From Acidobacteriota bacterium (GTDB lineage Bacteria > Acidobacteriota > Polarisedimenticolia > Polarisedimenticolales > DASRJG01), in NCBI GenBank assembly GCA_032124015.1, contig JAQBEH010000020.1:8965-72964 (forward strand): a DNA stretch of 64,000 nucleotides, in the 5' to 3' direction. This document shows, piece after piece, positions 1 to 59,052 of this stretch (position 1 is the stretch's first letter; each line of letters opens with the position of its first letter). Below the pieces are notes generated by a model. The model did no database searches. It was not told where the DNA came from and saw only the letters and a program-made list of their open reading frames with translations. Position numbers and translations under genes: made by a program.

Positions 1-664
1 CGGGACGACTCCCGACGAAATCGTGGTCGACGAAGGAGGAATCCGCTACACGGCCGATCCCTGGCGGGGCCAGAAGACGGGCGCCTTTCTCGATCAGCGA
101 GAAAACCGCCTGGCCTGCCGCGCCTACGCTCGCGGGCGCGTCCTCGATGCGTTTTCGTACCATGCGTCGTTCGCGCTGCACGCGGCGTTCCAGGCTTCGG
201 AGGTCGTGGTCGTCGACGCCTCCTCGGACGCATTGACCCGCGGACGCGCGAACGCGGAGTTGAACGGCGCGACGAACCTGACGTTCGTCGAGGCGAACGC
301 GTTCGAGGACCTGCGCGAGCGCGACCGGCGGGGGGAACGATTCGATCTCGTCATGCTCGATCCTCCGGCGTTCGCGAAGAGTCGCGGCGACGTAGTGGCC
401 GCCCGGCGCGGGTACAAAGAGATCAACCTGCGAGCGTTCCGGCTGCTCGCTCCCGGCGGGGTCCTCGTCACGTCGTCCTGCTCGTACAACCTCGACGAAC
501 CGTCGTTCGAAGGCCTCGTGCGCGAGGCCGCGGCCGACGCGGGCCGGGACGTGGTGGCGCTCAAACGGAGAGGACAGGCCGCCGACCATCCCGTGCGGCT
601 GGCGTTTCCCGAGGGCCGCTATCTGAAGTGCTTCGTGCTGCGGGACGCGTCAGGGGCGCCGTGA
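1..664 (+). CDS. Class I SAM-dependent rRNA methyltransferase, RlmI/YwbD-like (C-terminal part; 5-prime end lies outside window)
   Basis: Translation contains QKTGAFLDQRENR, FDLVMLDPPAFAKSR, AARRGYKEINLRAFRLLAPGGVLVTSSCS, typical of the RlmI/RlmK PUA-SAM methyltransferase family. The reading frame is open to the window edge. Confidence 0.8.
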   Translation, partial: GTTPDEIVVDEGGIRYTADPWRGQKTGAFLDQRENRLACRAYARGRVLDAFSYHASFALHAAFQASEVVVVDASSDALTRGRANAELNGATNLTFVEANAFEDLRERDRRGERFDLVMLDPPAFAKSRGDVVAARRGYKEINLRAFRLLAPGGVLVTSSCSYNLDEPSFEGLVREAAADAGRDVVALKRRGQAADHPVRLAFPEGRYLKCFVLRDASGAP

Positions 665-3600
665 GGGGCGGCAGCGTGCTGGCCGCGGCGTTCGCCTGTG
701 CCTTGGCGACGGGCGGAACGCACGCCCAAACGCCACCCGACGCGCGATCTACGACCTGGCTGCAGCGCCGCCTCGAGACGGGCTTGGCGGAGGCGCTCGG
801 CGGAACGGTGCGGATCGGGCGGATCGACGTCGACTGGACCACGCTGTCGGCCACGGTCGGCGACGTGGCGATTGCGATCCCCGCCGGCGGAGCGCCGCCG
901 CTCACCGCCACGATCGGAGAGGGGAGAATCAAGCTCGCCTGGTCCGGGCTGAGCGGCATCGCGGGCGGGCAGGTTCACATCACCGAGCTCGTCGCGCGCA
1001 ACGCGACGTTTTCGCTCAGCCGGGAGTGGATCGACGCGTTCAAGCCGAAAGTCAGGAAGGAGGGCGGGCCGGTCGCGGTCCAGATCGACCGGCTCGTGGT
1101 CGAGGACGCCACCGCGGAGTATCTCGATGGGCACCATCACGTGCGGGTGCAGACCCACTCTTTCAATTTCCGCGGCGACTGGTCGACCTCGCGCCAGCGA
1201 CTCATCGGTGAGTTGCGCACCGAAGCCACCCTCGAGGCGCCGATCTTCAACCGCCCGTGGCCGGCTTCGGTTCGGTCGGGGTTGAGGCTCGGCGGCGGGC
1301 GACTCGAGATTTTTTCGGCGACCGCCGAGGGAGCAGGAGCCACCGCGGAGCTCACGGGAAACGTCGTGTGGGGGGTGGGCGTGTCCTTCACGGCGCAGGG
1401 CCGTTTGGACGCTGACCTCGCTGCTTTGAGCCCTTTTCTGGAGGGCCATGCCGGGCTTTCGGGCCGGGCCGAGGGACCCGTCCAGATCGTGTACACCGGC
1501 GGCGTGCCGATCCGGGTCGCGATGCAGGCGGCGACGACGGGATTTCGCGTCGGGCCGATCGCCACTGAGACCGCTCGCTGCGACCTCACGATCCGCCCGG
1601 GACACTTGGACGTCGAAAATATCGACGCGCGGGCCTACAAGGGGACCTTCGCGGGCAACGTGGGTCTCGACTTCGGCACGCCGCTCGAACTCCGGACGGA
1701 CATCTCAGGGAAGGGCGCCGATCTCTCCCGGCTGATCGCCCTCGCCGGACCGGTACTTCCGCTTGCGAGCGTCGCCGACGTGACGTTCAAGATCGTGGGC
1801 GATCCCGGGAGACTCGTGACGTGGAACGGCGGAGGGACCTTCGACGCCGTGCCTGTTTCCGCGGGTACGAGCGCGCGCATTCCCGCGGGAGGACGCGGAC
1901 GCCTGACGTTCGATTCCGGCCGCGTGCGCGTGCAAGCGGACCGTTTATCGCTGGCGGAGACGTCGTTGCGTTTCGACCTCCTGTCGGAACTCTCCGCGGC
2001 GCCGGCCAAGACCCATCTCACGGTCGACGGGACGACGCGCGACGCCCGGGTGACGCAAGACGCCGCATTGTCGATCCTCGACGCGTTCGGGGTCGAGCGG
2101 AATCGGTTCGCCCTCCTGCCTCTTCATGGAGCCGGGACCCTGCGCGCTGCGTTGAGGACCGCCGGTCGGGCCGCGACGATCGACCTGGGACTCGAGCTCG
2201 CGGAGGGCTCCTACGCCGGCGAGCCGTTCGCTTCGGCGATCCTGGATCTCGGTGTCTCACCAATCGCCGTGGACATCCGGCGCGTCGAGTTGTCCGGCGG
2301 CGGGCAGTTCTTGGCGGGGAGCGCGCGCTTCGACGCCAAGAACGGGGCGCTCGATGCGATCGACCTCACGGCCCGAGGCGTGGACATGGCGAGGCTGCTT
2401 GCGAGCGCAGGGGTCGCCGGTTCCGTCGAAGGCCGTGTCGAGGGGACGCTTCGCGGATCGCGCGAAGGCGGCGTGTTCGCAGCCCTCGGGCACGTCGCGG
2501 CGCACAGGGTCATCGTCGGTCATGAGATTGTCGACACGGTGGAGGCGCCCGTTCGTATCGAAGGGGATCAAGTCATTCTCGACGGGCTCGTCGCGCGGAG
2601 TGACGGCTTCGATGCCAGCGGACGCGTGACCTACGCCGTCGCGAAGGGCGAAGTCGAGGTGGAGATCGACGCGGCGACCATAGACCTTGCGCGCAACCGC
2701 ACGGTTGCCGACGCGGGCCTGACCGCGCAAGGGACGATTCATGCGTTGGGTTCGATGACGATCACGAAAGACGGTCCCAACGGGCGATTTGGGCTCACGG
2801 CGAGCGACCTCCTCCTGGATACGGGCCGCAGCGGATTACGTGAGATCCAACTCGGGAACCTGACCGGCGAGGCGACGATCTTGCCGATCGGACTCGAGTT
2901 CGCCGTCGCTTCGCGGCCTTCCGCATGGACCTTCGAGGGGTTCTTGGGCTTTGCGCCCAAACTGCCGCTTTCGGCCGTGCTGTATTTCGAAAACCTGGTC
3001 GTGGGGGCCGGGGGTGTTTTCGGAGAAAGCATCGACCTGACGTTGAAGGGGCAGGTCCACGCGGAAGGCGATCTGACGGAACCCCGCGCGATGGCGATCA
3101 ACGGCGTCTTCGACGAGACTGACGTCCGGCTCGGGCTGCGGGTCGTTCGCTCCCTCGAGCCGTTTCCCCTGCGCCTCGACGGCGGGCGCTTCGTGCTCGG
3201 CCCATCGCGGTTTTCCGGTGACGCCGCGGAGGTCGAACTCGCCGCGAGCGGATCGGTCGAGGGAGGAGACGTCGCGGGGTACCTCCGGGGGACGCTCGAC
3301 CTGGCGGTCGCGTCGTCGCTGTGGTCCGAGATCCGCGGCGGCGGGACGCTCACCATCGACGCGACCCTCGCCGGTACGTTCGAGCGCCCCGACCTTGAAG
3401 GCCGCGTCGCCGTGCGTGACGGTCGCCTGCGTCTGATCGGCTATCCGCAGTCTTTGGAGTCGATCGATGCGGACGCGGTGCTCGCGGGGCAGACGCTCAC
3501 GCTTTCGTCGTTTCACGCCCTCCAGGGCGGGGGAGAGATCTCGGCGACGGGGAGCGTGGAGTTCGAAGGTGTCGTTCCCAAGTCCCTTCGGGCCGAGTTC

Positions 3601-6600
3601 ACGGGCGCAAACGTCAGCGCGAAATTTCCCGAGGGGTTCAAAGGGACCTACGAGGGCCGCATCGAGGTCGAGGGAACGCCAAAGCGCGCGAAGATCTCAG
3701 GACGGGTCGACGTCGTGCGGGGTTTGTACTCCAAGGACTTCGACGTCGGTCTTTTCGCTGGGGCGCAACGCGAGTTCGACGCCGCGGCCGAGTCGCCGTT
3801 TCCTCGCAATCTCTTTCTCGACGTCGACGTCGTGGCGCCGGGTAACGTCTGGCTTCGCAACGACGTGGCCGCCGTCGAGGCGGAGGGGCAGATTCATCTC
3901 GGAGGCGAGCTGGCGCGCCCGGAGGTGACCGGACATTTCAACCTGGTGCCCGGCGGCGTCGTCACCTATCGGGACGTGAAGTATCGCATCGACTACGGAA
4001 CGGTGAATTTGACCGATCCGAAGCGCATCAACCCGTACCTCGAATTTCGCGGCCGCACTCGCGTTGCGGAGTACGACATCACGCTGCGCATCGCGGGTAC
4101 GCTCGACAAATTCGATTACGAGCTGGCCTCCACGCCGCCGCTCGACTCGCAGGACATCATCTCGCTTCTCGTCACAGGAAAGACGCTCGGCACGCTGGGC
4201 GATTCGGCCACCGCCGCGGCGCTTCCGACGGACATGGCCGCCTACTACTTCGCCGGCCTGCTGAGTTCGACGTTCGGAAAACAGATTGAGAGCTCGCTCG
4301 GGATCGATCAACTGGCGATCACTCCGCAGTTGCTGAAGGGGGAGTCCGATCCGACCGCGCGTGTCACGGTCGGCAAACACGTGAGCGACTCCGTGAAGGT
4401 CTCGTTCTCCCAGGATATCGGAACCGCTCAGAAGCAGACCTACTCGGTGTCTTGGGACGCTTCGCGGCGCATCCGCCTGGTCGTCGAGGACGACACGGAG
4501 TCCGGAATCGGCGGCGAATTGCAGTACGCCCAGCAGTTCGGCGGGACACCGATCGGCGGCGGGAAGGGCGGCGCGTTGGGAACGGTCGCATCCGTCGAGG
4601 TGATGACGGCCGACGGGGCGCCGCTTTCGGATCTCGTCAAACGAGCGAAAATCAAGGTCGGCGAACCTTTCGACCGCGGCCGGATGCTCCAGGGGGGCGA
4701 TCGCATTCGCGCCGCACTCCTGAAGGCAGGCTTCATCCAGGCCACCGTCCGCGCCGAGGCGGTGGTCGACGAAGGCCCGCCGCTTACGCGGCGGATCGTC
4801 TACCGCGTTGTGCCGGGACCGCCGGTCACGGTCGAGTTGGTCATGAGCGACGGCAAGGGGAAGCGAAAGGCTCGGAAATCGCTCAAGGCCTTCTGGCGCG
4901 AGACGATGTACACGCCGGATTTCTGGGAAGAAGCGGTCGATGCCCTGCTCGCCGACTATCGAGATCGCGGCTACTACGCCGCCGATGTCACGTGGCAGAC
5001 GGCGGACAGCCCGTCCGGGCGAACGGTGCGCATTCTCGTGGATCGCGGAAAACCGGTGCGCCTGCGTTCGGTGCGCTTCGAGGGAGGCACGTCGATCCCG
5101 CGGGAGCGCATCGACAAGCAGATGACCTGCCTGAAGAGCCAGGGGCTGCGCAAGCCTCGCCTCGAACCGTCGGTGCTGGCGGATGACCTCGCCTCGGTCA
5201 GGGCTCTTTACCGCGAGGAGGGGTTCACACGCGTGCGCATCGGACTGCCGCGGATCACGCTGTCCGCGACGGGCGAGAGCGCCGAGGTCGATGTCGCCAT
5301 CGACGAAGGACCGCGATTCACGGTCGGCACGGTCGGCTATTCGGGAGGGGACGCCCTGTCGGAAGAGCAGCTGCGCGCATCGACGTCGATCGAGCCCGGA
5401 ACGACGTTTTCGCCGCGCCGGCTCGCCGAGGTCGAACAGACGCTGAGGGAGCGATTCGACGCGCTCGGCTATCCCGACACGAGCGTCGAGTCCCGCGTCG
5501 AGCTCGTGGGGGATCGCGCGAACATCCTCTTCGAGATCGCTTCAGGCAGCCGCAAGGAGGTTGGCGAGATCGCGATCGAAGGGAACCGCGTCACCAAGGA
5601 CAAGACGATCGCAAAAGCGCTGACCTTCGGGGTCGGCCAGGTCGTCTCGAAACAGGCGCTCCTCGAGAGCCAGCAACGACTCTATCGAACCGGGCTCTTT
5701 TCCAGCGTCAAACTCTCGTGCGTTCCCGAAGGAGGCGCTGACGCGAGCGCCCAAGTCGTGACCGTGAAGGTCACGGAGGCGCCGCCATTCGCGCTTGGTC
5801 TCGGCGTGGGATACGACTCGACCGACGGCCCGGGGGCGAGCTTCCTTCTCGGGTACTCGAACCTCGGCGGACGCAACGTGGCGATCGCGCTGCAGGGCCG
5901 ATTCAACCGCAATGAGACTCGGGGGCTTCTCACGATTCGGAGAAGGCGCGTGTTCGGAAACACGATCGACTCACTCGGCTCGTTGCTCTATGAAAGGCAG
6001 GTCCAGGACGGGTTCTCCACGCTGCAAACTACGGCCTCGATCCGGTTGGAACAGCGGCCGAAGCCGCGGTGGATTCGCTACCTCCGGTATAGCATCCAGG
6101 AGGCCCGAGTTACCGACATCACCGATGCCGAGGCGGCGCTCGAGCAGATCTTCAAGGACAAATTGTCGAGCGTGCGGCTCGCCAATGCGAGCCTCGGAAT
6201 CGTCCGGGATACGCGCGACGACGCCTTTCTCCCGACCCGAGGAGGTTATGCCTCGATCGAGGGCACCGTCTTTGCGAGAGCGCTCGGATCCGAGGCGTCT
6301 TTGCTCCAGTCGTTCCTGCGCGGATCGTGGACTTACTCGGCCAAGCGAGGCGGGCGTTTCGCGACGTTCCTCCGCATCGGCGCCGAGCAACCCTTCGCCG
6401 ACACCGACATCGTCCCGCTCTCCGAGCGCTACTTCGCCGGCGGAATCAACACGCTACGCGGTTTCGCCACGGACTCGGTCGGTGGGTTGGTCATCCCTCG
6501 TGACCCAAACCAGCCCGATGGCCCGAGTGTCAACATCGGAGGCGAAGCGATCTTCTTGTTCAACCAGGAGTGGCACTTCCCCATCTGGAAGAGTTTGCGT

Positions 6601-6801
6601 GGGGAGCTGTTCCTCGACGTCGGAAACGTCTACCCGACGATCAGCGACTTCGACCTGACCGAGCTGCGCTACGACGCCGGCGTCGGCCTCCGCCTCGAGA
6701 CGCCGATCGGGCCGATCCGCCTCGAGTACGGGTGGAAGCTCGATCGGCAACCGGGCGAGAGCCCAGGCGAGTTGATCTTCGCGATCGGAACGCTGTTCTG
6801 A
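661..6801 (+). CDS. TamB/AsmA-like translocation-assembly protein fused in frame to POTRA repeats and an Omp85 (BamA/TamA-type) beta-barrel
   Basis: One uninterrupted ORF (track 628..6801). GTG 661 overlaps the upstream stop as GTGA; GTG 628 is an alternative start. N-terminal signal/anchor SVLAAAFACALATGGTHA. Long TamB-like body ends in a DUF490-like block (VGKHVSDSVKVSFSQDIG...GGELQYAQQF, ends about 4538). A Gly-rich linker follows, then about five POTRA-like repeats (about 4585-5780). The Omp85-type barrel ends ...LIFAIGTLF. Confidence 0.8.
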   Translation: MRGGSVLAAAFACALATGGTHAQTPPDARSTTWLQRRLETGLAEALGGTVRIGRIDVDWTTLSATVGDVAIAIPAGGAPPLTATIGEGRIKLAWSGLSGIAGGQVHITELVARNATFSLSREWIDAFKPKVRKEGGPVAVQIDRLVVEDATAEYLDGHHHVRVQTHSFNFRGDWSTSRQRLIGELRTEATLEAPIFNRPWPASVRSGLRLGGGRLEIFSATAEGAGATAELTGNVVWGVGVSFTAQGRLDADLAALSPFLEGHAGLSGRAEGPVQIVYTGGVPIRVAMQAATTGFRVGPIATETARCDLTIRPGHLDVENIDARAYKGTFAGNVGLDFGTPLELRTDISGKGADLSRLIALAGPVLPLASVADVTFKIVGDPGRLVTWNGGGTFDAVPVSAGTSARIPAGGRGRLTFDSGRVRVQADRLSLAETSLRFDLLSELSAAPAKTHLTVDGTTRDARVTQDAALSILDAFGVERNRFALLPLHGAGTLRAALRTAGRAATIDLGLELAEGSYAGEPFASAILDLGVSPIAVDIRRVELSGGGQFLAGSARFDAKNGALDAIDLTARGVDMARLLASAGVAGSVEGRVEGTLRGSREGGVFAALGHVAAHRVIVGHEIVDTVEAPVRIEGDQVILDGLVARSDGFDASGRVTYAVAKGEVEVEIDAATIDLARNRTVADAGLTAQGTIHALGSMTITKDGPNGRFGLTASDLLLDTGRSGLREIQLGNLTGEATILPIGLEFAVASRPSAWTFEGFLGFAPKLPLSAVLYFENLVVGAGGVFGESIDLTLKGQVHAEGDLTEPRAMAINGVFDETDVRLGLRVVRSLEPFPLRLDGGRFVLGPSRFSGDAAEVELAASGSVEGGDVAGYLRGTLDLAVASSLWSEIRGGGTLTIDATLAGTFERPDLEGRVAVRDGRLRLIGYPQSLESIDADAVLAGQTLTLSSFHALQGGGEISATGSVEFEGVVPKSLRAEFTGANVSAKFPEGFKGTYEGRIEVEGTPKRAKISGRVDVVRGLYSKDFDVGLFAGAQREFDAAAESPFPRNLFLDVDVVAPGNVWLRNDVAAVEAEGQIHLGGELARPEVTGHFNLVPGGVVTYRDVKYRIDYGTVNLTDPKRINPYLEFRGRTRVAEYDITLRIAGTLDKFDYELASTPPLDSQDIISLLVTGKTLGTLGDSATAAALPTDMAAYYFAGLLSSTFGKQIESSLGIDQLAITPQLLKGESDPTARVTVGKHVSDSVKVSFSQDIGTAQKQTYSVSWDASRRIRLVVEDDTESGIGGELQYAQQFGGTPIGGGKGGALGTVASVEVMTADGAPLSDLVKRAKIKVGEPFDRGRMLQGGDRIRAALLKAGFIQATVRAEAVVDEGPPLTRRIVYRVVPGPPVTVELVMSDGKGKRKARKSLKAFWRETMYTPDFWEEAVDALLADYRDRGYYAADVTWQTADSPSGRTVRILVDRGKPVRLRSVRFEGGTSIPRERIDKQMTCLKSQGLRKPRLEPSVLADDLASVRALYREEGFTRVRIGLPRITLSATGESAEVDVAIDEGPRFTVGTVGYSGGDALSEEQLRASTSIEPGTTFSPRRLAEVEQTLRERFDALGYPDTSVESRVELVGDRANILFEIASGSRKEVGEIAIEGNRVTKDKTIAKALTFGVGQVVSKQALLESQQRLYRTGLFSSVKLSCVPEGGADASAQVVTVKVTEAPPFALGLGVGYDSTDGPGASFLLGYSNLGGRNVAIALQGRFNRNETRGLLTIRRRRVFGNTIDSLGSLLYERQVQDGFSTLQTTASIRLEQRPKPRWIRYLRYSIQEARVTDITDAEAALEQIFKDKLSSVRLANASLGIVRDTRDDAFLPTRGGYASIEGTVFARALGSEASLLQSFLRGSWTYSAKRGGRFATFLRIGAEQPFADTDIVPLSERYFAGGINTLRGFATDSVGGLVIPRDPNQPDGPSVNIGGEAIFLFNQEWHFPIWKSLRGELFLDVGNVYPTISDFDLTELRYDAGVGLRLETPIGPIRLEYGWKLDRQPGESPGELIFAIGTLF

Positions 6802-10042: not shown

Positions 10043-11235
10043 CGCCTCCCGAAGACGCTTCGAAGAAAAGGCAGGATCGGATCGGCGGTGATTGCCGGAG
10101 CCGGGCCGTACCCGTCCAAACGCCAGCCGGATTCTCCTTCCGGATGAAGTGACGCGGTCATGGCCGCGATCGGCGCTTCTTTCGGCTCGTCCGTCGAACG
10201 CGCCAGGCGAGCCCAGCTCTGCCTCACGAACGCGGACGACGAAACAGCGCTCCAACTCGCGTCGAACGCGCCGGGAGCAGAGGGGTCGCCGCTGAGAAGC
10301 GAACCCTCGCGCCGGGCGTCGATCGCGGATTCGAGCCGCGCGCGCGAGGACGTCACGAGCAGGATCGGACCATCGATGGCAAGAGCGATCCCGGACCCAC
10401 CGGCGCTCGGAACGAACGATCCCGTGGAGACACCACGATAGCGAACGACCTCGGCATGCTCGGTCAAGGCGCCCAGGCCAAAGAGCATGTCGAGGAGACC
10501 GGAAAGCCGGTCGGAGCGACGGAGCTCCAAGGCGAGGATCGCTTCGGCCTGGGTGTCGTCCCCGCCGTCGTAGAGTGCAAAAACCGCGGGTCCGGCCAGG
10601 TCCTCGGCGATCTCGGCGCGCACGGGGTGCCCAAGAAGCCTCTCCGCGAAATTCGCGCGATCACGCCAGGACGCCAAGACGGCGCCACCGAGTGTCGGAT
10701 CCGCCAGACGCCTGGGCATCAGTCGAATCCTGACCAGGCAGGAGGGTGTGCCGGGAACGGCCTGAAGGGCCAACGTCGCAGCAGGAATCACGTGAGTTCT
10801 GTCCAAAATGTCGAGCACCGGGGCGGGCCCGTCGAAGCTCCAGGATTCCCTCAAGCCGACCGTCGAGGTGGTCCCGGCAGCGGTTCTGGTGTCGATCGTT
10901 CCCCGCGCGGTCGCCGGAAACAACTCGGACCCGCCGGGAAAGCCCATGGCCGCCAGACGCGGTTCGAGGACTGCGCGTAGGTCGACCTCAACGTGAAGGA
11001 TCCCCTCCGCGTCGACCTGGCCCGAGCGAAGTGCCTTGGAGTTCAGCAGGGCCCGATAGAGAGGGATGCCTTGAAGGAGGGTGAGGGCCGCCTCGTCGGT
11101 CGGCCGGTCCGGGTTCGGCGGGCCGGTTTCGGGGCCGTTCGAGCCCCGGCCCGCGCAGCGCCAGAGGGTGAAAGAGGCCACGAGGAGGGCGCTCGCGAGG
11201 AACGCCACCGCCACGACGAGGGCACTCCGTTTCAA
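10033..11235 (-). CDS. Hypothetical membrane-anchored protein
   Basis: TTG 11235 is preceded by GGAAAGGAAAG. N-terminal TM ALVVAVAFLASALLVASFTLW. No family recognised. The track start (11355) would overlap the divergent gene. Confidence 0.5.
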   Translation of the reverse strand: MKRSALVVAVAFLASALLVASFTLWRCAGRGSNGPETGPPNPDRPTDEAALTLLQGIPLYRALLNSKALRSGQVDAEGILHVEVDLRAVLEPRLAAMGFPGGSELFPATARGTIDTRTAAGTTSTVGLRESWSFDGPAPVLDILDRTHVIPAATLALQAVPGTPSCLVRIRLMPRRLADPTLGGAVLASWRDRANFAERLLGHPVRAEIAEDLAGPAVFALYDGGDDTQAEAILALELRRSDRLSGLLDMLFGLGALTEHAEVVRYRGVSTGSFVPSAGGSGIALAIDGPILLVTSSRARLESAIDARREGSLLSGDPSAPGAFDASWSAVSSSAFVRQSWARLARSTDEPKEAPIAAMTASLHPEGESGWRLDGYGPAPAITADPILPFLRSVFGRRQR

Positions 11236-11344
11236 TCCACTTTCCTTTCCGGCACCGATCCCTATATTGTCCGCGATGGGCAGTATAGGTTCACGGGGTG
11301 GGCCGGGGGTGGACCTCGGGGCCCAAACGACGGTGACGACCGGG

Positions 11345-12835
11345 ATGCAGGCCAATTTCAGTAGTCAGACGCTTGCCGAGATCTTCCGCGATCTCTACGT
11401 CGGGGAGCGCTCGGGCGTCCTCGAACTGAGCCGCGGGAACATCGAGAAGCGGATCTATTTCGATCGCGGCATGATTCTGTTCGCCGAATCCGGCGCCGAC
11501 GATGAAAACCTCGGCCGCCGGCTGGTGAGCGAAGGGAAGATCTCACCCGGAGCCCTCTCGGAGGCTCGACGGAACATCAGCGAGCCCAAAGATCTCGCCC
11601 AGGCGTTGGTCAACCGCGGCCTGATCGGGAAAGAGACTCTCTCCCACACCGTGCGTTACATCGTGGAGCAAGTCATTCAGTCCGTTTTCCAATGGGAAGG
11701 CGGCACGGCGCGATTCAGCGAGGGCTGGCTCCTCCAAGAGATCTTTGAAAGCGACATCCTGCTCACGTTCGAGGTGATCCTCAAGGGGATCGGCGCGATG
11801 GTCGGCTTCGAGCCGATTCAAGCGGCGATGAAGGGGCTCGACAGCCGCCTCAAGCTGCGGCGGCCGTCACCCGTCCCTCTCGAACGAGTCGCGCTTTCGC
11901 CGGCCCACGGCTACATCCTGTCGCGCATCGACGGTAAGAGTCGCCTTCAAGACATCCTCGCGCTCCTTCCTCCGGCGGAAGAAGGTTTGGCCTGCCGGTT
12001 CCTGTATGGGCTTCTCGTGCTGGGTGTGGTCTGTTACGACCCGCCGGTTGGGGAAGCGGCGTTTCGGATCACCACCATCCTGCGGGACCACGCGGACACG
12101 GTCGCCCTCGAAGGCTTGCAAGAGCGCATGGTCCTCGAGACCTACGCCGCGATGAGGAACAAAAACCCGCACGAGGTTCTGGGGCTCCCTTCGGGCGCGT
12201 CGCGCGACACGATAGAAAGCGCCTACGAAGAGGCCAAAGACCGGTTCAGCCGGGACCGGATCCTGCCCCGCATCCGGGAACGCCTCCGCGCGGAGCTAGC
12301 CGTCATCGAGAGCCGGTTCGTCGAGGCGTACCTGACGCTCGTGCAGGCACGGGCCAACGACCACGGGCCAAGGCCCGAAGACGGAGCTGACGCAAAGGAA
12401 CCGCAGGGCATGGATGATTTCCTCGTCCGGATCGAAATGGACAAGACCAAGACGAAGGTCGCAATCGAGGAAAATGCCAAGCTCGCGGAGTCCTACTTCT
12501 CCCAGGCCAAGAAGTTCATGCGAGAAGGGGACCCCTACAACGCCATCCAGTACGGGAAGCTGGCGATCAGCTACAGCCCCGACGAAGCCCGATTCTATTT
12601 TCTCCTCGCCGAATGCCAGGTCAAGAATCCGGACGCTCGCTGGCAACGCCTGGCTGAGCAGAACTACCTCGAGGCGGCCCGGCAGGACCAGTGGAACGCC
12701 GAGTACCGGATCACGCTGGGCCGTTTCTACAAACGGCGCGGACTGAAGCTCAGGGCTAAAAAGCAGTTTGAGGAGGCTCTCACGCTCGCTCCCACCCACG
12801 AAGGCGCGCTCAAGGAGCTCCAGTCCGTCTCGTGA
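11345..12835 (+). CDS. DUF4388 (PATAN-like) domain protein with J-like domain lacking HPD and C-terminal TPR repeats
   Basis: N-terminus LAEIFRDLYVGERSGVLELSRGNIEKRIYFDRGMILFAESG (DUF4388 signature). NPHEVLGLPSGASRDTIESAYEEAKDRFSRD is J-domain helix I-II-like but no HPD tripeptide follows. The C-terminus has TPR-like AIQYGKLAISYSPDEARFYFLLAECQ. ATG 11345 was chosen; ATG 11275 is an alternative. Confidence 0.65.
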   Translation: MQANFSSQTLAEIFRDLYVGERSGVLELSRGNIEKRIYFDRGMILFAESGADDENLGRRLVSEGKISPGALSEARRNISEPKDLAQALVNRGLIGKETLSHTVRYIVEQVIQSVFQWEGGTARFSEGWLLQEIFESDILLTFEVILKGIGAMVGFEPIQAAMKGLDSRLKLRRPSPVPLERVALSPAHGYILSRIDGKSRLQDILALLPPAEEGLACRFLYGLLVLGVVCYDPPVGEAAFRITTILRDHADTVALEGLQERMVLETYAAMRNKNPHEVLGLPSGASRDTIESAYEEAKDRFSRDRILPRIRERLRAELAVIESRFVEAYLTLVQARANDHGPRPEDGADAKEPQGMDDFLVRIEMDKTKTKVAIEENAKLAESYFSQAKKFMREGDPYNAIQYGKLAISYSPDEARFYFLLAECQVKNPDARWQRLAEQNYLEAARQDQWNAEYRITLGRFYKRRGLKLRAKKQFEEALTLAPTHEGALKELQSVS

Positions 12836-51023: not shown

Positions 51024-51494
51024 ATGGCCGCGGGAGAGAATCCGGAGGAGACGGGACAGGACGAACAGACGCCCAGCATCAAGGTCACCGACAGGCGGCA
51101 TTTCACGCTTGACGGGGAGCGTCGCACCGAAGTCGACGAAGATCCCGAATTGGCTACTCCCGTTGGAGTTCAGCCCATTCCGGGGGAAACGAGACCACCG
51201 GAGAGCGACACCCAGTTCGAGCACCGTCCGTTGGACGAGCCGGCGGGCGTGGATTTCACGATGTTGATCAACGCCATGGCGCAACCGGCGTTGCTCTACC
51301 TCGGTGAAATTCCACATCCGGCGACCGGGAAACCGACCTTGGACCTCGAGGGGGCACGCTTGCAGATCGACATGCTCGACCTGCTCCGCGTGAAATGCCG
51401 GGGCAATCTGACTCCCCAGGAAGACAACCTCCTGGAGAGTGTTCTGCACCAGCTCAGGATGCGATACGTCGCGCGGTCGGGAACGGCCGGCTAG
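51024..51494 (+). CDS. DUF1844 domain protein
   Basis: KVTDRRHF...DFTMLINAMAQPALLYLGEIPHPATGKPTLDLEGARLQIDMLDLLRVKCRGNLTPQEDNLLESVLHQLRMRYV. ATG 51024 follows GGGGAGG. Confidence 0.7.
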   Translation: MAAGENPEETGQDEQTPSIKVTDRRHFTLDGERRTEVDEDPELATPVGVQPIPGETRPPESDTQFEHRPLDEPAGVDFTMLINAMAQPALLYLGEIPHPATGKPTLDLEGARLQIDMLDLLRVKCRGNLTPQEDNLLESVLHQLRMRYVARSGTAG

Positions 51495-51568: not shown

Positions 51569-53605
51569 GTGAGCTGTCGACCCGAACGAGCGTTCGCCGC
51601 GGTGTTGGTCGCGCTGATCTCCTGGGGCGCGACCCCCGTCGCTCGCGCGACGATCGACCACGGCGTGATCCGGCTCGCGCCCCCAACCGAGTCGGCTGAA
51701 CAAGAATCCCCGATAGACCCCGAGCCCGGGCCGCGTTCGGACGCGCGCCGCGGTTTTGACGTGACGGCCTTCGACAGCCGGTTCGAGAGCCTCTGGTTCC
51801 AACGCAAGGTCTACCAGGCCGAGGGTCGGGACGAGGAGGTCGCCCGCCAGTCCGATTCGATCCGTGACTTCGTCAGCGAAGAGGGCGTGCGGCGCCTCGA
51901 AGTGCCGGCCGGCGCCCTCCTGATCGAATCCCGTGACTGGCTCCGCGAGGGCAGCTACGACAAAGCGCTGGCGTCGCTCACGCTCGCCGAGACCCTCGAT
52001 CCGGGGCGCCCCCAGATCACGCGAGCCCGGGCGCAGGTGCTCTGGGCGTCCGGATCCGGGGCGCTCGCTGCCGGTTCCGAGTGGTTGCGCGCGATGCGCG
52101 GCGCCGTCATGGCCGCGATTCGCGATCTGCATTTCGTGCACGGGTCCGCGCTCGTCGTCCTCGTCGCCGTTCTTTGCGGAATCGCTCTGTTTTCCTTGCT
52201 CATGATGCTCCGCTACCAGGTGGTGCTCCGCCATGACGTCGAGGAGTGGTTGATTCGAAGCGACCGGGAGTCGTGGGCGAAAGCCGGCGGGTGGGCCGTG
52301 CTGCTGCTTCCATTCGTCCTCTGGGTCGGCGCCGGCTGGGTCGCGATCTACTGGATCGCCGCGATGTTCCGTTACATGAGGCGCGGCGAGCGCGCGCTGG
52401 CCGCGCTGCTGCTCGTCGCCACCGCTCTGGCGCTCCCGGCCTATCGTTTCGCCGTCGGGCTCTACGGACTCGCCGCCGACCCGACGATGCGGACGACGAT
52501 CGCCGCGGGCAACGGGGGATACGATCCGGACCGGATCGTCGCGTTGCGCGAGTTGGTCGACACCCACCCCGACGATCCGATGTATCGGTTCCTTCTCGCC
52601 GGGCTTTACAAGAACGGACGTTTTTTCGAGGACGCGTTTCTGGAGTACAGACGGGTCCTCGAAGAGGCGCCGTCGACCTATCAGGCGCGGATCAACCTTG
52701 GAAACATCTACTTCACGATCGGCCAATACGGCGAGGCCATCTCGAACTACCGGCGGGCCTTGGACATCCGTCCGAACTCCGCCCTGGCGTACTACGACAT
52801 GTACCTGGCGCAGTCAGACTCCTTCAAGCTCAAGGAAGCCACCGAGTCCCTCGCGTCCGCCCGCCGCCTCGACCCCGCCCAGACGACGGCTTGGCTCACA
52901 TCGGACAGCCGAGAGGGCCGTGGCCCCAAGGCGATCGACGCCGTGATCGACTTCGACTCGATCTGGCGGGCGACGGTCGAGGGGCGAAGCCTCAGATCGT
53001 GGCTCGACGCCGAACCGGAACAGGGTCACTGGACCCCGGCGCTCGCGGGTCTCGCCAATATCACGAGCATCCTCGCTTTCACGGGACTCCTCGCGTGCGG
53101 CGTGACCGTCGCGATGTTCCGCGGGAGCCACCCCGCACAGCGATGCACGCGCTGCGGCCAGCCCTTCTGCGCGCACTGCAAATCCGCACGCGACGGCCCC
53201 GACTATTGCAGTCAATGCGTGCACCTGTTCGTGTTGGGAGACGGCCTCGCACCGGAAACCAAGAGCATGAAGCTGTACCAGATCGAGCGGTATGACACGC
53301 GAAATCGGCGCGTGCGGCGCTTCGCCTCCGTCATCTTTCCGGGCGCGGCGCACCTTCTGACCGGTCGCGCGTGGCTCGGCTGCGGATTGCTGATGCTCTG
53401 GCTGCTCGCATGGATCGGCGGTTTCCCACAGGGTTTGACGCCCCTCGAGCGCCTGCTCGGCATGAGCGTTCACCTCGCGGGGCTCCGACCGGCGTCCATT
53501 CCGGATGTGTTCGGCCTCGACGCGGTGCTCTTGCTCGCCATTCCCTTGGGGATCGCGGTGTGGCTCGCCGGGAACGCCGGCCTCTCCCGGATGCGGAGGG
53601 TCTGA
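51569..53605 (+). CDS. Polytopic membrane protein with TPR repeats and a Cys-rich zinc-ribbon segment
   Basis: GTG 51569 follows GAAGGAG. TPR-like YRFLLAGLYKNGRFFEDAFLEYRRVLEEAPSTYQARINLGNIYFTIGQYGEAISNYRRALDIRPNSALAYYDMY. CTRCGQPFCAHCKSARDGPDYCSQCVHLF. Several TM helices. The start is uncertain. Confidence 0.6.
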   Translation: MSCRPERAFAAVLVALISWGATPVARATIDHGVIRLAPPTESAEQESPIDPEPGPRSDARRGFDVTAFDSRFESLWFQRKVYQAEGRDEEVARQSDSIRDFVSEEGVRRLEVPAGALLIESRDWLREGSYDKALASLTLAETLDPGRPQITRARAQVLWASGSGALAAGSEWLRAMRGAVMAAIRDLHFVHGSALVVLVAVLCGIALFSLLMMLRYQVVLRHDVEEWLIRSDRESWAKAGGWAVLLLPFVLWVGAGWVAIYWIAAMFRYMRRGERALAALLLVATALALPAYRFAVGLYGLAADPTMRTTIAAGNGGYDPDRIVALRELVDTHPDDPMYRFLLAGLYKNGRFFEDAFLEYRRVLEEAPSTYQARINLGNIYFTIGQYGEAISNYRRALDIRPNSALAYYDMYLAQSDSFKLKEATESLASARRLDPAQTTAWLTSDSREGRGPKAIDAVIDFDSIWRATVEGRSLRSWLDAEPEQGHWTPALAGLANITSILAFTGLLACGVTVAMFRGSHPAQRCTRCGQPFCAHCKSARDGPDYCSQCVHLFVLGDGLAPETKSMKLYQIERYDTRNRRVRRFASVIFPGAAHLLTGRAWLGCGLLMLWLLAWIGGFPQGLTPLERLLGMSVHLAGLRPASIPDVFGLDAVLLLAIPLGIAVWLAGNAGLSRMRRV

Positions 53606-53606
53606 G

Positions 53607-54881
53607 ATGGCCCTCGTGGGAACGATCAAGGACTTCGGGCTCGCCGACATCCTCCAGCTCATCGGCCTGCAACGGAAAACCGGGCTCCTCACGCTCGAAC
53701 ACGACACCGACACGGTTACGGTGAAGTTCCTCGAGGGAGCGGTCGTCGGCGCCGATACCAGCACACGAAATCTCGAGGACCTTCTGGGTTCCGTCCTCGT
53801 CCGCACAGGCCGGATCACGCAAGCGCAACTGCGAGAGACGCTCCAAATCCAAAAGACAACGATGCAGAGGCTCGGCTACATTCTCGTCAAGCAGAACTTC
53901 ATCTCGAGCACGGACCTCGAAGCAGCGCTCCGCGTCCAGGTGAGTCAAATCGTCTATCGCCTCTTCCGCTGGCGCGAAGGGAAGTACCGGTTCGTGCCGA
54001 TGGATCTCATGGAGTACGACAACGAGCACTTCCAGCCGTTGTCGGCCGAGACGATTCTGATGGAAGGCGCCCGGATGATCGATGAGTGGCCGATGCTCGA
54101 GCGACGCATCCCGTCAACGGAAGTGGTCTTCAAGAAGACCGCCTCGGGCGCGGCGCTCGATGTCCCGATCGCCTCCTTGCTCGACGCCGACATCGACTTC
54201 GGGTTCCAAGATGCCCCGGGGCCCGAGGAGAAGAAAGCGGGCGCGATCAGCATCTCTCCCGAGGAGCGCGACATCCTCCGCATGGTGGACGGGTGCGCGA
54301 CCGTCCGGGACATCGTGGACACGAGCGCGCTGGCCGAATTCGACGTGTACCGGCAGTTGGTCGAACTGCTCGCCCGCAATCTCATCGAGGTGGTCGTCGT
54401 CGAGGTGGCCGCGGAGGACGCCGCGCGGGGCCGCGATCGCTTGCGGTGGGCCTCCGCAGCGCTTCTTTCGCTCGTATTCGCCCTGGCTGCCCTCGGCATC
54501 GCGACTCTTGGCCTCAATCCGTTCACGCCATGGAGGCTGTCCGCACGTTCCCGCGAGACCGAGTTGCTGAAAACCTACGTCGGCCGGAACCGGCTCGAGC
54601 GCGTGGAGAAGTCGATCCAGGCCTACTACCTCGATCGCGGGTCGATGCCGAGGAACCTGGCAGCCCTCTCGTCGGAGGGTTTTCTCCCCAGGGAGGACAC
54701 CGTTGATCCGTGGGGCCATCCCTACGCGTACCGTGTCGACCCCTCGGCCTACGAACTCGGCAGCCGATCTTCCGCGGACGCACCCGGGGAAGACCTCGTG
54801 ATCCGCCACCCCTACAGCGCCTCACAGCGGATGGTGCTCGAGGGGGGGGCCATCGACCGGGGACGCTCGATCCGCCCTTGA
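53607..54881 (+). CDS. DUF4388 (PATAN-like) domain protein with TM helix and C-terminal GspG (type II secretion pseudopilin)-like domain
   Basis: [50 protein letters not shown] (DUF4388). [22 protein letters not shown]. The C-terminus [41 protein letters not shown] matches the GspG core motif (DPWGxPYxY). Confidence 0.65.
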
Positions 54882-58314: not shown

Positions 58315-59052
58315 ATGAGCGAGCCCTGTCCGAAATGCGGTGGGACCGGATTCGAAGTCAAAGACGGCGCCGAAGGCGTGGCGGTTTCCGTTCGCTGCCC
58401 GTGCAGCGTCAGGGACCGCACCGACCGCATCCTCCGCGCCGCGCGGATCCCGCGCCGCTACGAGCACTGCTCGTTCGACAACTTCGAAGTCTGGCAACCG
58501 ACTCTGGAGCCCGCGTTGGCTTGGGCCAGGGATTGGTTCGAGCGTTGGCCTCTTCAGGTCGATGTCGGGTTGCTGTTCGTCGGGCCCCCGGGCACCGGAA
58601 AGACCCACCTTGCCGTCGGCCTGCTCCGTGAGTTGGCGTCGCGCAAGGGAGCGAAGATCGTGTTCGCCGAGCAGCGTCAGCTCCTCAAGGACCTGCAGTC
58701 GACCTTCGACGGGGGCGCCGGTCGCAACGAGTCCGACGTCCTCGCCCCCGTCCTCGAGGCGGAGGTCCTCCTGCTCGACGATCTCGGGGCCGGACGGACG
58801 ACGGCCTGGGCCCAGGACGTCATGCACGACGTGCTCGCGCACCGCTACAACCGCAAGCTCCCTACGGTCATGACCAGCAACCGTGCGACCGGGGACGATG
58901 ACGACGGCACGGCGGCGCCATCGGACGCCCCGACGCTGCGGGATCGTCTCGGGGACGCTTTGATGTCCCGGATCTACGAAATGTGTCGCGTCATCCCGGT
59001 TACGGGCGAGGATTTCCGGAGACGCGTCCTTCACGCGCGACACCGCTTCTGA
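58315..59052 (+). CDS. DnaC/DnaI/IstB-like AAA+ ATPase with N-terminal Cys-rich zinc-ribbon (putative helicase loader)
   Basis: CPKCGGTGF...RCPCS; GLLFVGPPGTGKTHLAVGL (Walker A); VLLLDDLGAGR (Walker B); PTVMTSN. Confidence 0.7.
   Translation: MSEPCPKCGGTGFEVKDGAEGVAVSVRCPCSVRDRTDRILRAARIPRRYEHCSFDNFEVWQPTLEPALAWARDWFERWPLQVDVGLLFVGPPGTGKTHLAVGLLRELASRKGAKIVFAEQRQLLKDLQSTFDGGAGRNESDVLAPVLEAEVLLLDDLGAGRTTAWAQDVMHDVLAHRYNRKLPTVMTSNRATGDDDDGTAAPSDAPTLRDRLGDALMSRIYEMCRVIPVTGEDFRRRVLHARHRF

Follow-up and report, generated by a model that had tools for sequence, protein, structure and literature searches.

A membrane-anchored PATAN protein of Acidobacteriota with a leaderless GspG-type core and a predicted cyclic di-GMP-binding module

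The locus described here raises the question of what a protein may do that carries a PATAN domain (DUF4388 or PatA_N) at one end and a core like that of the major pseudopilin GspG at the other. We analysed a 64,000-nucleotide stretch of contig JAQBEH010000020.1 (assembly GCA_032124015.1, Acidobacteriota bacterium), referred to as the window, and within it the gene at 53607..54881 on the + strand, which encodes 424 amino acids (aa). The protein consists of four modules and one transmembrane (TM) helix in the order PATAN[MshEN_N]-wH-TM-GspG-like, where wH is a winged-helix-like module and the brackets mark a module, predicted to bind cyclic di-GMP (c-di-GMP), that is nested in the PATAN domain. 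An earlier, sequence-only reading had proposed a DUF4388 domain, a single TM helix and a T2SSG-type C-terminus; Pfam and hydropathy analysis found each of them in its proposed place. The nested module and the winged-helix module were overlooked in that reading. The domain composition, the single TM helix, the conservation and the gene pairing described below are demonstrated; the topology, c-di-GMP binding, complex formation and the direction of signalling are what we infer. Our tentative proposal is that the protein is a bitopic c-di-GMP receptor or adaptor which acts with a tetratricopeptide repeat (TPR)/zinc-ribbon partner and relays its state to the periplasm via a non-polymerising pseudopilin-like head.

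Concerning the gene itself, the ATG at 53607 follows the upstream gene's TGA by 1 nucleotide (nt) and a GGAGG by 7 nt, and the open reading frame (ORF) list places the stop of this + strand frame at 54881. The alignment of homologues shows an invariant N-terminus (MAL.GT..DF); the ORF is real, and its boundaries as first read are right. A search returned 1594 homologues at E<1e-3, and those listed are about 415-433 aa long and nearly all full-length.

A PATAN domain with a nested MshE-type module

The PATAN domain (aa 1-185, 53607..54161, + strand) is matched by Pfam PF14332 in two stretches, with 113.5 bits against a cutoff of 25 (E=8e-33), and is interrupted by a helical insert. For tests at the family level we used 45 diverse homologues (53-88% identical), all of which match PATAN, and the N-terminal DUF4388 signature of the sequence-only reading is thereby confirmed. 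AlphaFold2 (AF2) models were obtained for the full length (predicted local distance difference test score, pLDDT, 74) and for aa 265-424 (pLDDT 78). In the former, the PATAN region is a β-rich core with the helical insert, at a pLDDT of about 75-85. Foldseek also returned roadblock/longin complexes (GATOR1, SEA) for the PATAN core; these matches were of low probability and were set aside. No match to the receiver domain (REC, Response_reg) was found by Pfam in the 424-aa protein, whose C-terminus is formed by the TM helix and T2SSG.

The helical insert contains a predicted c-di-GMP module of the MshEN_N type (aa 60-111, 53784..53939, + strand), made up of a 24-residue motif, a 5-residue spacer and a second 24-residue motif. 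It was identified in three ways. The NCBIfam model NF053729 (53 positions, 'cyclic di-GMP-binding domain, MshE-related') gives 52.4 bits against a curated cutoff of 38 (E=3.2e-14). A profile of the family, compared with the PDB, matches via aa 56-116 the N-terminal domains of PilF (3.8e-7), MshE (6.5e-7) and PilB (4.8e-6), with three PilB structures among the matches. Foldseek superposes the AF2 model on MshE with bound c-di-GMP (5htl_B) at a root-mean-square deviation of 0.8 Å over 54 columns (42% identity, prob 1.0); with the full-length model as query, the only credible matches are the N-domains of MshE, PilF and PilB.

The tandem 24+5+24 layout and twelve key residues have been described for MshEN_N (Wang et al. 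2016, PMC5013675). In our profile alignment, 11 of the 12 MshE key residues are retained: L10, G11, L25, L29, Q32 and R38 correspond to L60, G61, L75, L79, Q82 and R88, and L39, G40, L54, L58 and Q61 to L89, G90, L104, L108 and Q111. The sole key residue that is changed is R9, which is replaced by L59. The motif is also kept in the family at large, for which one genome per GTDB species was scanned: 236 species genomes encode a relative, and the tandem c-di-GMP pattern is retained in 219 of the 236 members. The equivalent of Gln32 is found in all 219 of these, that of Arg38 in 213 and that of Gln61 in 217; the first position of motif I is Arg in 74 of the 219.

A second PATAN/DUF4388 protein is encoded in the window at 11081-12835 (+ strand); it is at most 584 aa long (its start codon is uncertain) and ends in TPR repeats. 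In its helical insert the MshEN-like module is degenerate and scores 16.9 bits with NF053729 (cutoff 38). Given this degenerate insert and the conservation within the family, the c-di-GMP motif of the 424-aa protein appears to be specifically maintained.

An acidic disordered linker (aa 189-213) leads to the winged-helix-like module (aa 214-265, 54246..54401, + strand), which in the AF2 model comprises three helices and a strand (H218-226, H233-239, H244-256, E260-263). Weak Pfam matches to TrmB, MarR, IclR and POLR3C_WHD fall on this segment in the window protein and in 9 of the 45 homologues, and a hidden Markov model (HMM) that we built from the segment matches nearly all family members. 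A winged-helix-type module accompanies PATAN domains generally (Han et al., bioRxiv 10.1101/2021.06.11.447907). Since the module stands directly before the TM helix and resembles MarR, TrmB and IclR, if weakly, the protein might be taken for a membrane-tethered transcription regulator of the ToxR/CadC kind, with a periplasmic head that senses and a winged helix that binds DNA; one homologue is indeed labelled 'predicted transcriptional regulator' by JGI. We regard this as very unlikely, because the winged-helix matches are far under the Pfam cutoffs and the conserved c-di-GMP motif and the TPR partner would be left without a role. Also, DNA binding by PatA-type proteins has been argued to be unlikely, and their output has been shown to be protein-protein binding at the membrane (Han et al., bioRxiv 10.1101/2021.06.11.447907).

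The GspG-type core and its membrane anchor

The T2SSG globular core spans aa 316-413 (54552..54845, + strand). For the single sequence the Pfam match (PF08334) is marginal: 22.1 bits, or about 1 bit over the gathering cutoff of 21, for aa 325-394 and positions 13-97 of the 108 in the profile. At the family level, T2SSG is matched in 43 of the 45 homologues at E<0.01 (best 4e-7), and an orthologue from Thermoanaerobaculia with 40% identity also matches. A profile of aa 265-424 has P. aeruginosa GspG (2kep) as its best match in the PDB, followed by EpsG and two further GspG entries. With hhalign, 66 columns are aligned with E. coli K-12 GspG at 30% identity (P=1.1e-4), including the Y-x-L-D-x-x-x-x-P helix, DPWG-x-x-Y and the G-x-DG loop, whereas the minor pseudopilin GspH, used as a negative control, gives P=0.29. 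Searched against 1.84 billion representative proteins, the aa 265-424 profile has 1615 matches at E<1e-3; the best of those beyond the family include proteins which score up to 1.9e-42 with Pfam T2SSG, and multi-copy T2SSG proteins are matched at about 1e-15.

In the AF2 model of aa 265-424, the chain breaks after the TM helix and continues as a helix of 37 residues and two short ones, after which come a three-stranded sheet and a helix at the C-terminus. The core itself consists of the long helix (316-344), the two short helices and strands 372-377, 381-386 and 398-402, and is closed by the C-terminal helix (SQRMVLEGG), which is specific to the family. The best PDB matches of this model in Foldseek are two type IV pilins, PilA4 (prob 0.85) and PilA1 (prob 0.80), with E values of only 0.2-0.3. 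D367, P348 and DPWG..Y.Y are retained across the wider family. Judging by these comparisons, the C-terminal domain is a genuine, if divergent, GspG-type core, with a similarity far beyond chance, and the GspG-like core of the sequence-only reading holds at the family level. The patterns of conservation indicate that both the c-di-GMP motif and the DPWG core are under strong purifying selection.

The score of the single sequence, only 1 bit over the cutoff, could make one suspect a chance match around the threshold, or a fusion of two genes produced by mis-assembly or mis-calling, all the more as a similar pseudopilin in the databases (P0168, on a 735-bp contig) looks chimeric. This explanation is scarcely credible, and the family-level evidence refutes it: the same full-length architecture is present in hundreds of independent assemblies and in the 236 species genomes, nearly all of the tested homologues match T2SSG, and hhalign succeeds with E. 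coli GspG and fails with the GspH control. Also, the reading frame is continuous and has the high G+C content at third codon positions that is usual for the genes of the window.

There is no prepilin leader, as had been noted from the sequence: Pfam gives no match to N_methyl (PF07963) at E<=1 in the window protein, and a motif scan found G[FM][TS]L[IL]E in no family member. A conserved hydrophobic α1N that continues into α1C was not found either, since the TM sequence is variable and a break follows it. The calcium-loop signature of GspG (G-x-DG...DD[ILV]) occurs in only 30 of 213 members, and the loop is of low confidence in the model. Without a leader or Glu5, with a TM helix unlike that of pilins, an NPxTPW break and a calcium loop that is mostly lost, the pseudopilin-like head is predicted to be neither processed nor polymerised.

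The single TM helix (W281-L303, aa 281-303, 54447..54515, + strand) is seen in both hydropathy and AF2. The maximum of the Kyte-Doolittle 19-mer is 2.36 at aa 285, with no second hydrophobic segment, and an AF2 helix (aa 269-300) covers the segment. In the family, 233 of the 236 members have one hydrophobic segment at about residue 284, conserved in position and not in sequence; the one TM helix first read thus extends to nearly all relatives. No N-terminal signal-like segment was found by hydropathy in the family members scanned (n=236). The TM helix is separated from the long periplasmic helix by a conserved helix-breaking motif, NPxTPW (54516..54533, + strand), where the AF2 helix is interrupted at aa 301-307. 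In the 45 homologues P308 never varies and N304, P305 and W309 hardly do; the wider family retains NP only.

PATAN, MshEN and winged-helix domains are of cytoplasmic types in characterised proteins, c-di-GMP itself is cytoplasmic, and GspG heads are periplasmic. Considering the leaderless N-terminal region of about 280 residues and the cytoplasmic nature of the PATAN and c-di-GMP modules, N-in/C-out would be the only consistent topology, with the C-terminal domain outside the cytoplasm. The positive-inside rule around this TM helix was uninformative. The periplasmic head of the sequence-only reading is therefore supported by the single TM helix, the missing signal peptide and the N-terminal domains, and gains little from the flanking charges.

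Leaderless T2SSG cores are not unique to this family, a qualification of the sequence-only reading. Seven metagenomic proteins (P0194, P0195, P0200, P0209, P0233, P0234 and P0258) have a signal peptide and 2-4 tandem leaderless T2SSG cores; for P0200, the Pfam T2SSG match is 1.9e-42 over 4 stretches. Another protein, P0268, is a zinc-ribbon protein with two T2SSG cores at its end. From their domain layout, the GspG head evidently serves as a repeat module outside pseudopili.

The pseudopilin P0168 (L084, a 735-bp ENA contig) has a GFTLLE leader and N_methyl and T2SSG matches, and the domain profile finds it at E=3.9e-21. Over its C-terminal half it is almost the same as homologue P0088, in the tail that is specific to the family (RHRFTPSQRMLLEGGLSDR). 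P0168 was considered as an evolutionary donor and dropped, being alone on its short contig and so similar to P0088 in that half; the assembly has probably fused two sequences at DPWGRPY, a stretch that they share. Should P0168 be real after all, it would have arisen by recombination of a gspG gene with the window family.

Partner gene, neighbourhood and distribution

Directly upstream (51569..53605, + strand) lies the gene of a 678-aa polytopic TPR/zinc-ribbon membrane protein, recognised by Pfam TPR families, hydropathy and CxxC motifs. It has 6-7 hydrophobic segments, and its three CxxC pairs are present in 115 of 115 homologues. The two genes meet at a TGA-G-ATG junction with an internal GGAGG and are translationally coupled. 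The positive-inside charge counts of the partner, its N-terminal part excepted, favour placing the zinc ribbon in the cytoplasm and the TPR array in the periplasm. Using tblastn with the window neighbours, we found the TPR/zinc-ribbon gene directly upstream in all 79 loci that reach far enough, and it takes the same place in 6 of 6 further divergent loci, which bears out the conserved neighbourhood suggested by the sequence-only reading. The target gene occurs once in every locus checked, paired with the TPR gene, while the genes downstream vary. Identification of the partner as PilW, Tgl or GltE was rejected (NCBIfam 22-27 bits against cutoffs of 154-225, generic TPR similarity), and a search for homologues of the partner returned only co-distributed Acidobacteriota proteins and no functional lead.

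In most loci the TPR gene is preceded by a DUF1844 gene (51024..51494, + strand; Pfam PF08899, E=1.3e-23). DUF1844 is a small, widely conserved protein of unknown function, and no relative was found in the PDB. The gene is present in 4 of the 6 divergent loci and overlaps the TPR gene by 4 nt in locus L067; its functional link to the pair is uncertain. The only literature mention that we found links the DUF1844 family to dtd in Deinococcus (PMC9425974). In the window, a dtd gene is located about 3 kb upstream.

As for distribution, taxonomy at the level of loci was read from the best 80 of the 236 relatives; almost all are labelled Acidobacteriota, and one record has no taxon name. Carriers include Polarisedimenticolia, Thermoanaerobaculia, Terriglobia and strain Mor1, and the more distant representatives with names are Acidobacteriota too. 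A downstream block of DnaK, Hsp20, sigma factor and DnaC-like genes is retained in one clade only; in Thermoanaerobaculia, VirJ-like genes and ATP synthase stand in its place. In one of the six divergent loci (L087, 330-6834, + strand) the pair ends a same-strand cluster with gaps of <=50 nt: a TPR protein with MAPKK1_Int (roadblock-fold) comes first, then Robl_LC7, then a GTPase of the Arf/Rag-like type that is fused to a SurA_N-like region, and finally another Robl_LC7. This cluster is an MglA/MglB-like module, of a kind already known beside PATAN genes.

These surroundings may also be read as those of an envelope or polarity scaffold apart from type IV filaments. The head would then be a small periplasmic protein-binding module that contacts the TPR array of the partner or a component of the cell wall or outer membrane, and the complex, tuned by c-di-GMP, would have a housekeeping role as a landmark in division, polarity or the biogenesis of the envelope. 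The single gene with its TPR partner stands among core genes (MurJ, AccA, MazG, DnaK, Lpt) in the loci checked, leaderless T2SSG cores occur in other contexts, and PATAN proteins are associated with MglA/MglB polarity modules. However, no direct evidence points to any envelope target, and the housekeeping synteny is lost in Thermoanaerobaculia (VirJ, ATP synthase), so that the housekeeping context may be historical rather than functional. We consider the scaffold unlikely, while giving it serious weight.

Two further observations concern other genes of the window. At 58315-59052 (+ strand) is a DnaC/IstB-like AAA+ protein (PRK08116-like, NCBIfam) with an N-terminal CxxC...CxC zinc motif. Its gene, apparently not part of an IS21 element, directly follows that of a 285-aa sigma factor of the group-1-like type, and the sigma/DnaC-like pair is conserved with DnaK-Hsp20 across the Polarisedimenticolia-like clade. 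Also, a single ORF of 2057 aa at 628-6801 (+ strand) contains TamB (966-1304), POTRA (1565-1639) and Omp85 (1745-2057) according to Pfam. TamB-like and TamA/BamA-like proteins are normally encoded by separate genes; this ORF is an apparent fusion of a TamB-like protein and a TamA/BamA-like barrel.

Possible function and comparison with known systems

In the mechanism we propose, the gene product would be a bitopic PATAN-family protein of the inner membrane, acting as a receptor or adaptor for c-di-GMP. Its cytoplasmic part would comprise the PATAN domain, with the intact MshE-type 53-residue module as helical insert, and then the winged-helix module; one TM helix would cross the membrane, and the periplasm would hold a GspG-type pseudopilin head with neither prepilin-peptidase site nor Glu5 nor pilin-like α1N. 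The protein would be co-produced and most likely complexed with the TPR/zinc-ribbon protein, and the charge bias of the latter suggests that its TPR array is next to the head, on the periplasmic side, and its zinc ribbon next to PATAN, on the cytoplasmic side. The pair could then pass the cytoplasmic c-di-GMP state to a periplasmic or envelope target ('inside-out' signalling) and, in some lineages, relay a small-GTPase polarity signal as well. The most plausible class of target, speculatively, would be a type IV-filament machine, i.e. a type IV pilus (T4P) or type II secretion system (T2SS), encoded elsewhere in the genome. A connection with polarity and T4P-type regulation would agree with the binding of PilB1 and PilC by other PATAN domains and with the GTPase cluster at L087. 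A signalling or scaffold component with a pseudopilin-like head in the periplasm, as the sequence-only reading put it, is still the best description: the T2SSG match is significant at the family level and the consistent topology does not place the head in the cytoplasm.

Several observations weigh against this proposal. The stacking Arg of motif I is missing in about 60% of the members, and the second turn Gly is variable across the family. The K+R bias across the TM helix is too weak to settle its orientation (2.1 N-terminal to it, 1.8 C-terminal). Those neighbours that are conserved have housekeeping roles (AccA, MazG, DnaK, Hsp20, sigma factor), and linkage to a GTPase module is seen in one locus only (L087). 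A motif search of 1.28 Mb of flanks from about 90 loci found neither a Walker A motif of the T2SSE/PilT type nor a prepilin motif, and no T4P/T2SS component was found among the window genes scanned with Pfam; a T4P/T2SS target thus lacks support from genomic context, and the link to T2SS/T4P genes that the sequence-only reading had raised for checking is not confirmed in these flanks. Finally, the leaderless tandem T2SSG repeats show that the fold can be used as a generic periplasmic module unrelated to filaments.

The head could instead act as a pilin mimic. The TM helix and GspG head would dock at the pilin entry site of a T4P/T2SS or at the filament base, PATAN would hold a PilB/GspE-type ATPase or a PilC/GspF platform, and the membrane-retained protein would prime, anchor or stall assembly in response to c-di-GMP. 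The modelled layout resembles that of an unprocessed pseudopilin (N-in, one TM helix, a head of helix and β-sheet), among pseudopilins the core resembles specifically the major one, GspG, and not GspH, and MshEN-type modules are otherwise typical of T4P/T2SS ATPases. Also, the PATAN domains of PixE, PixG and LsiR are output domains at the inner membrane, where they bind PilB1 and PilC (bioRxiv 10.1101/2021.06.11.447907). However, the TM helix has neither the sequence features of α1N nor Glu5 and is followed by the conserved NPxTPW break, the calcium-loop signature is rare, no T4P/T2SS gene lies near any of the roughly 90 loci, and the invariant partner is no pilus component. On balance, docking of this kind seems rather improbable. 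We place still less trust in a bolder form of our own proposal, in which the non-polymerisable head would be a periplasmic decoy or base subunit gating a type IV-filament machine (a pilus or a secretion pseudopilus), and the protein with its partner a phylum-wide 'inside-out' c-di-GMP transducer coupling second-messenger and small-GTPase polarity signals, across the inner membrane, to the assembly of filaments; this we think improbable.

The protein is real and widespread, all four domains are already known, and their combination is visible in automatic annotation, some members being labelled 'DUF4388/T2SS protein G' by JGI. Our full-text literature search found no characterised example that joins DUF4388/PF14332 with T2SSG or a pseudopilin, in agreement with the sequence-only reading, which knew of none. 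Looking in the literature for pili in Polarisedimenticola also gave nothing. Acidobacteriota are an abundant phylum of soil and sediment and almost intractable genetically. If the receptor or adaptor proposal is right, they possess a conserved, essentially single-copy c-di-GMP receptor; PATAN and MshEN-type modules gain a new output, a transmembrane link to a periplasmic pilin-fold domain; and the GspG head has been taken over as an independent module of the periplasm with no part in building filaments, which bears on the evolution and regulation of type IV-filament components. The surprise is moderate, as the context points to no target or phenotype; the hypothesis lends itself to direct testing by virtue of its c-di-GMP motif and fixed gene pair.

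Compared with known families, the protein has the PATAN domain, the T2SSG core and the MshE-type motif by the Pfam and NCBIfam cutoffs, and lacks what marks a pseudopilin (leader, α1N, operon) and the REC domain of PatA-type proteins. In the MshEN_N receptors MshE, PilB, PilF and NfrB the module is N-terminal in an ATPase or glycosyltransferase, whereas here it is nested in PATAN and there is no MshEN_C/T2SSE_N1 subdomain. Over the module, identity with VcMshE is 42%, all but one of the 12 key residues agree, and the predicted structure fits that of VcMshE with a deviation of 0.8 Å; motif I starts with Leu and not Arg, and the protein is a predicted binder. PATAN with a nested MshEN_N does not figure in the table of architectures given by Wang et al. 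2016 (PMC5013675), while PF05157 is reported to co-occur with DUF4388 (Han et al., bioRxiv 10.1101/2021.06.11.447907).

With GspG, PulG and XcpT the protein shares the C-terminal half of the long helix with Y-x-L-D-x-G-x-x-P, the DPWG-x-x-Y-x-Y strand, the small three-stranded sheet, a core without a disulfide and, as predicted, an extracytoplasmic domain tethered by one TM helix N-terminal to it. It differs in lacking a class III signal peptide, an N-methylation site and Glu5, in a TM helix that is not pilin-like and is split from the long helix by NPxTPW, in a shorter α-β loop and a calcium-binding loop that is mostly not conserved, in the extra C-terminal helix (SQRMVLEGG), in about 280 aa of cytoplasmic domains before the TM helix, and in a gene outside any gsp or pil operon. 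The PatA-type regulators (PixE, PixG, LsiR and TaxP2 of Synechocystis, PatA of Anabaena) have in common with it the N-terminal PATAN with helical insert, followed by a helical or winged-helix region. They are cyanobacterial, carry a REC domain and are peripherally associated with the membrane, whereas the present family is found in Acidobacteriota, lacks REC, is integral, retains the complete MshE-type c-di-GMP motif in its insert and would add a periplasmic domain.

Two further systems are similar by analogy only. In GspL (and PilM-PilN), a cytoplasmic domain that could contact the secretion ATPase is joined by a single TM helix to a small α/β domain in the periplasm, which sits beside the pseudopilins in the T2SS. 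GspL is related to the present protein neither in sequence nor in fold: its cytoplasmic domain is actin-like, its periplasmic domain ferredoxin-like, and it is encoded within the gsp operon, and the present protein shares none of these traits. LapD is an inner-membrane c-di-GMP receptor that presents a periplasmic domain to a partner; it is built from degenerate GGDEF-EAL, HAMP and LapD_MoxY_N domains with two TM helices, whereas the protein described here has one TM helix and a separate polytopic partner.

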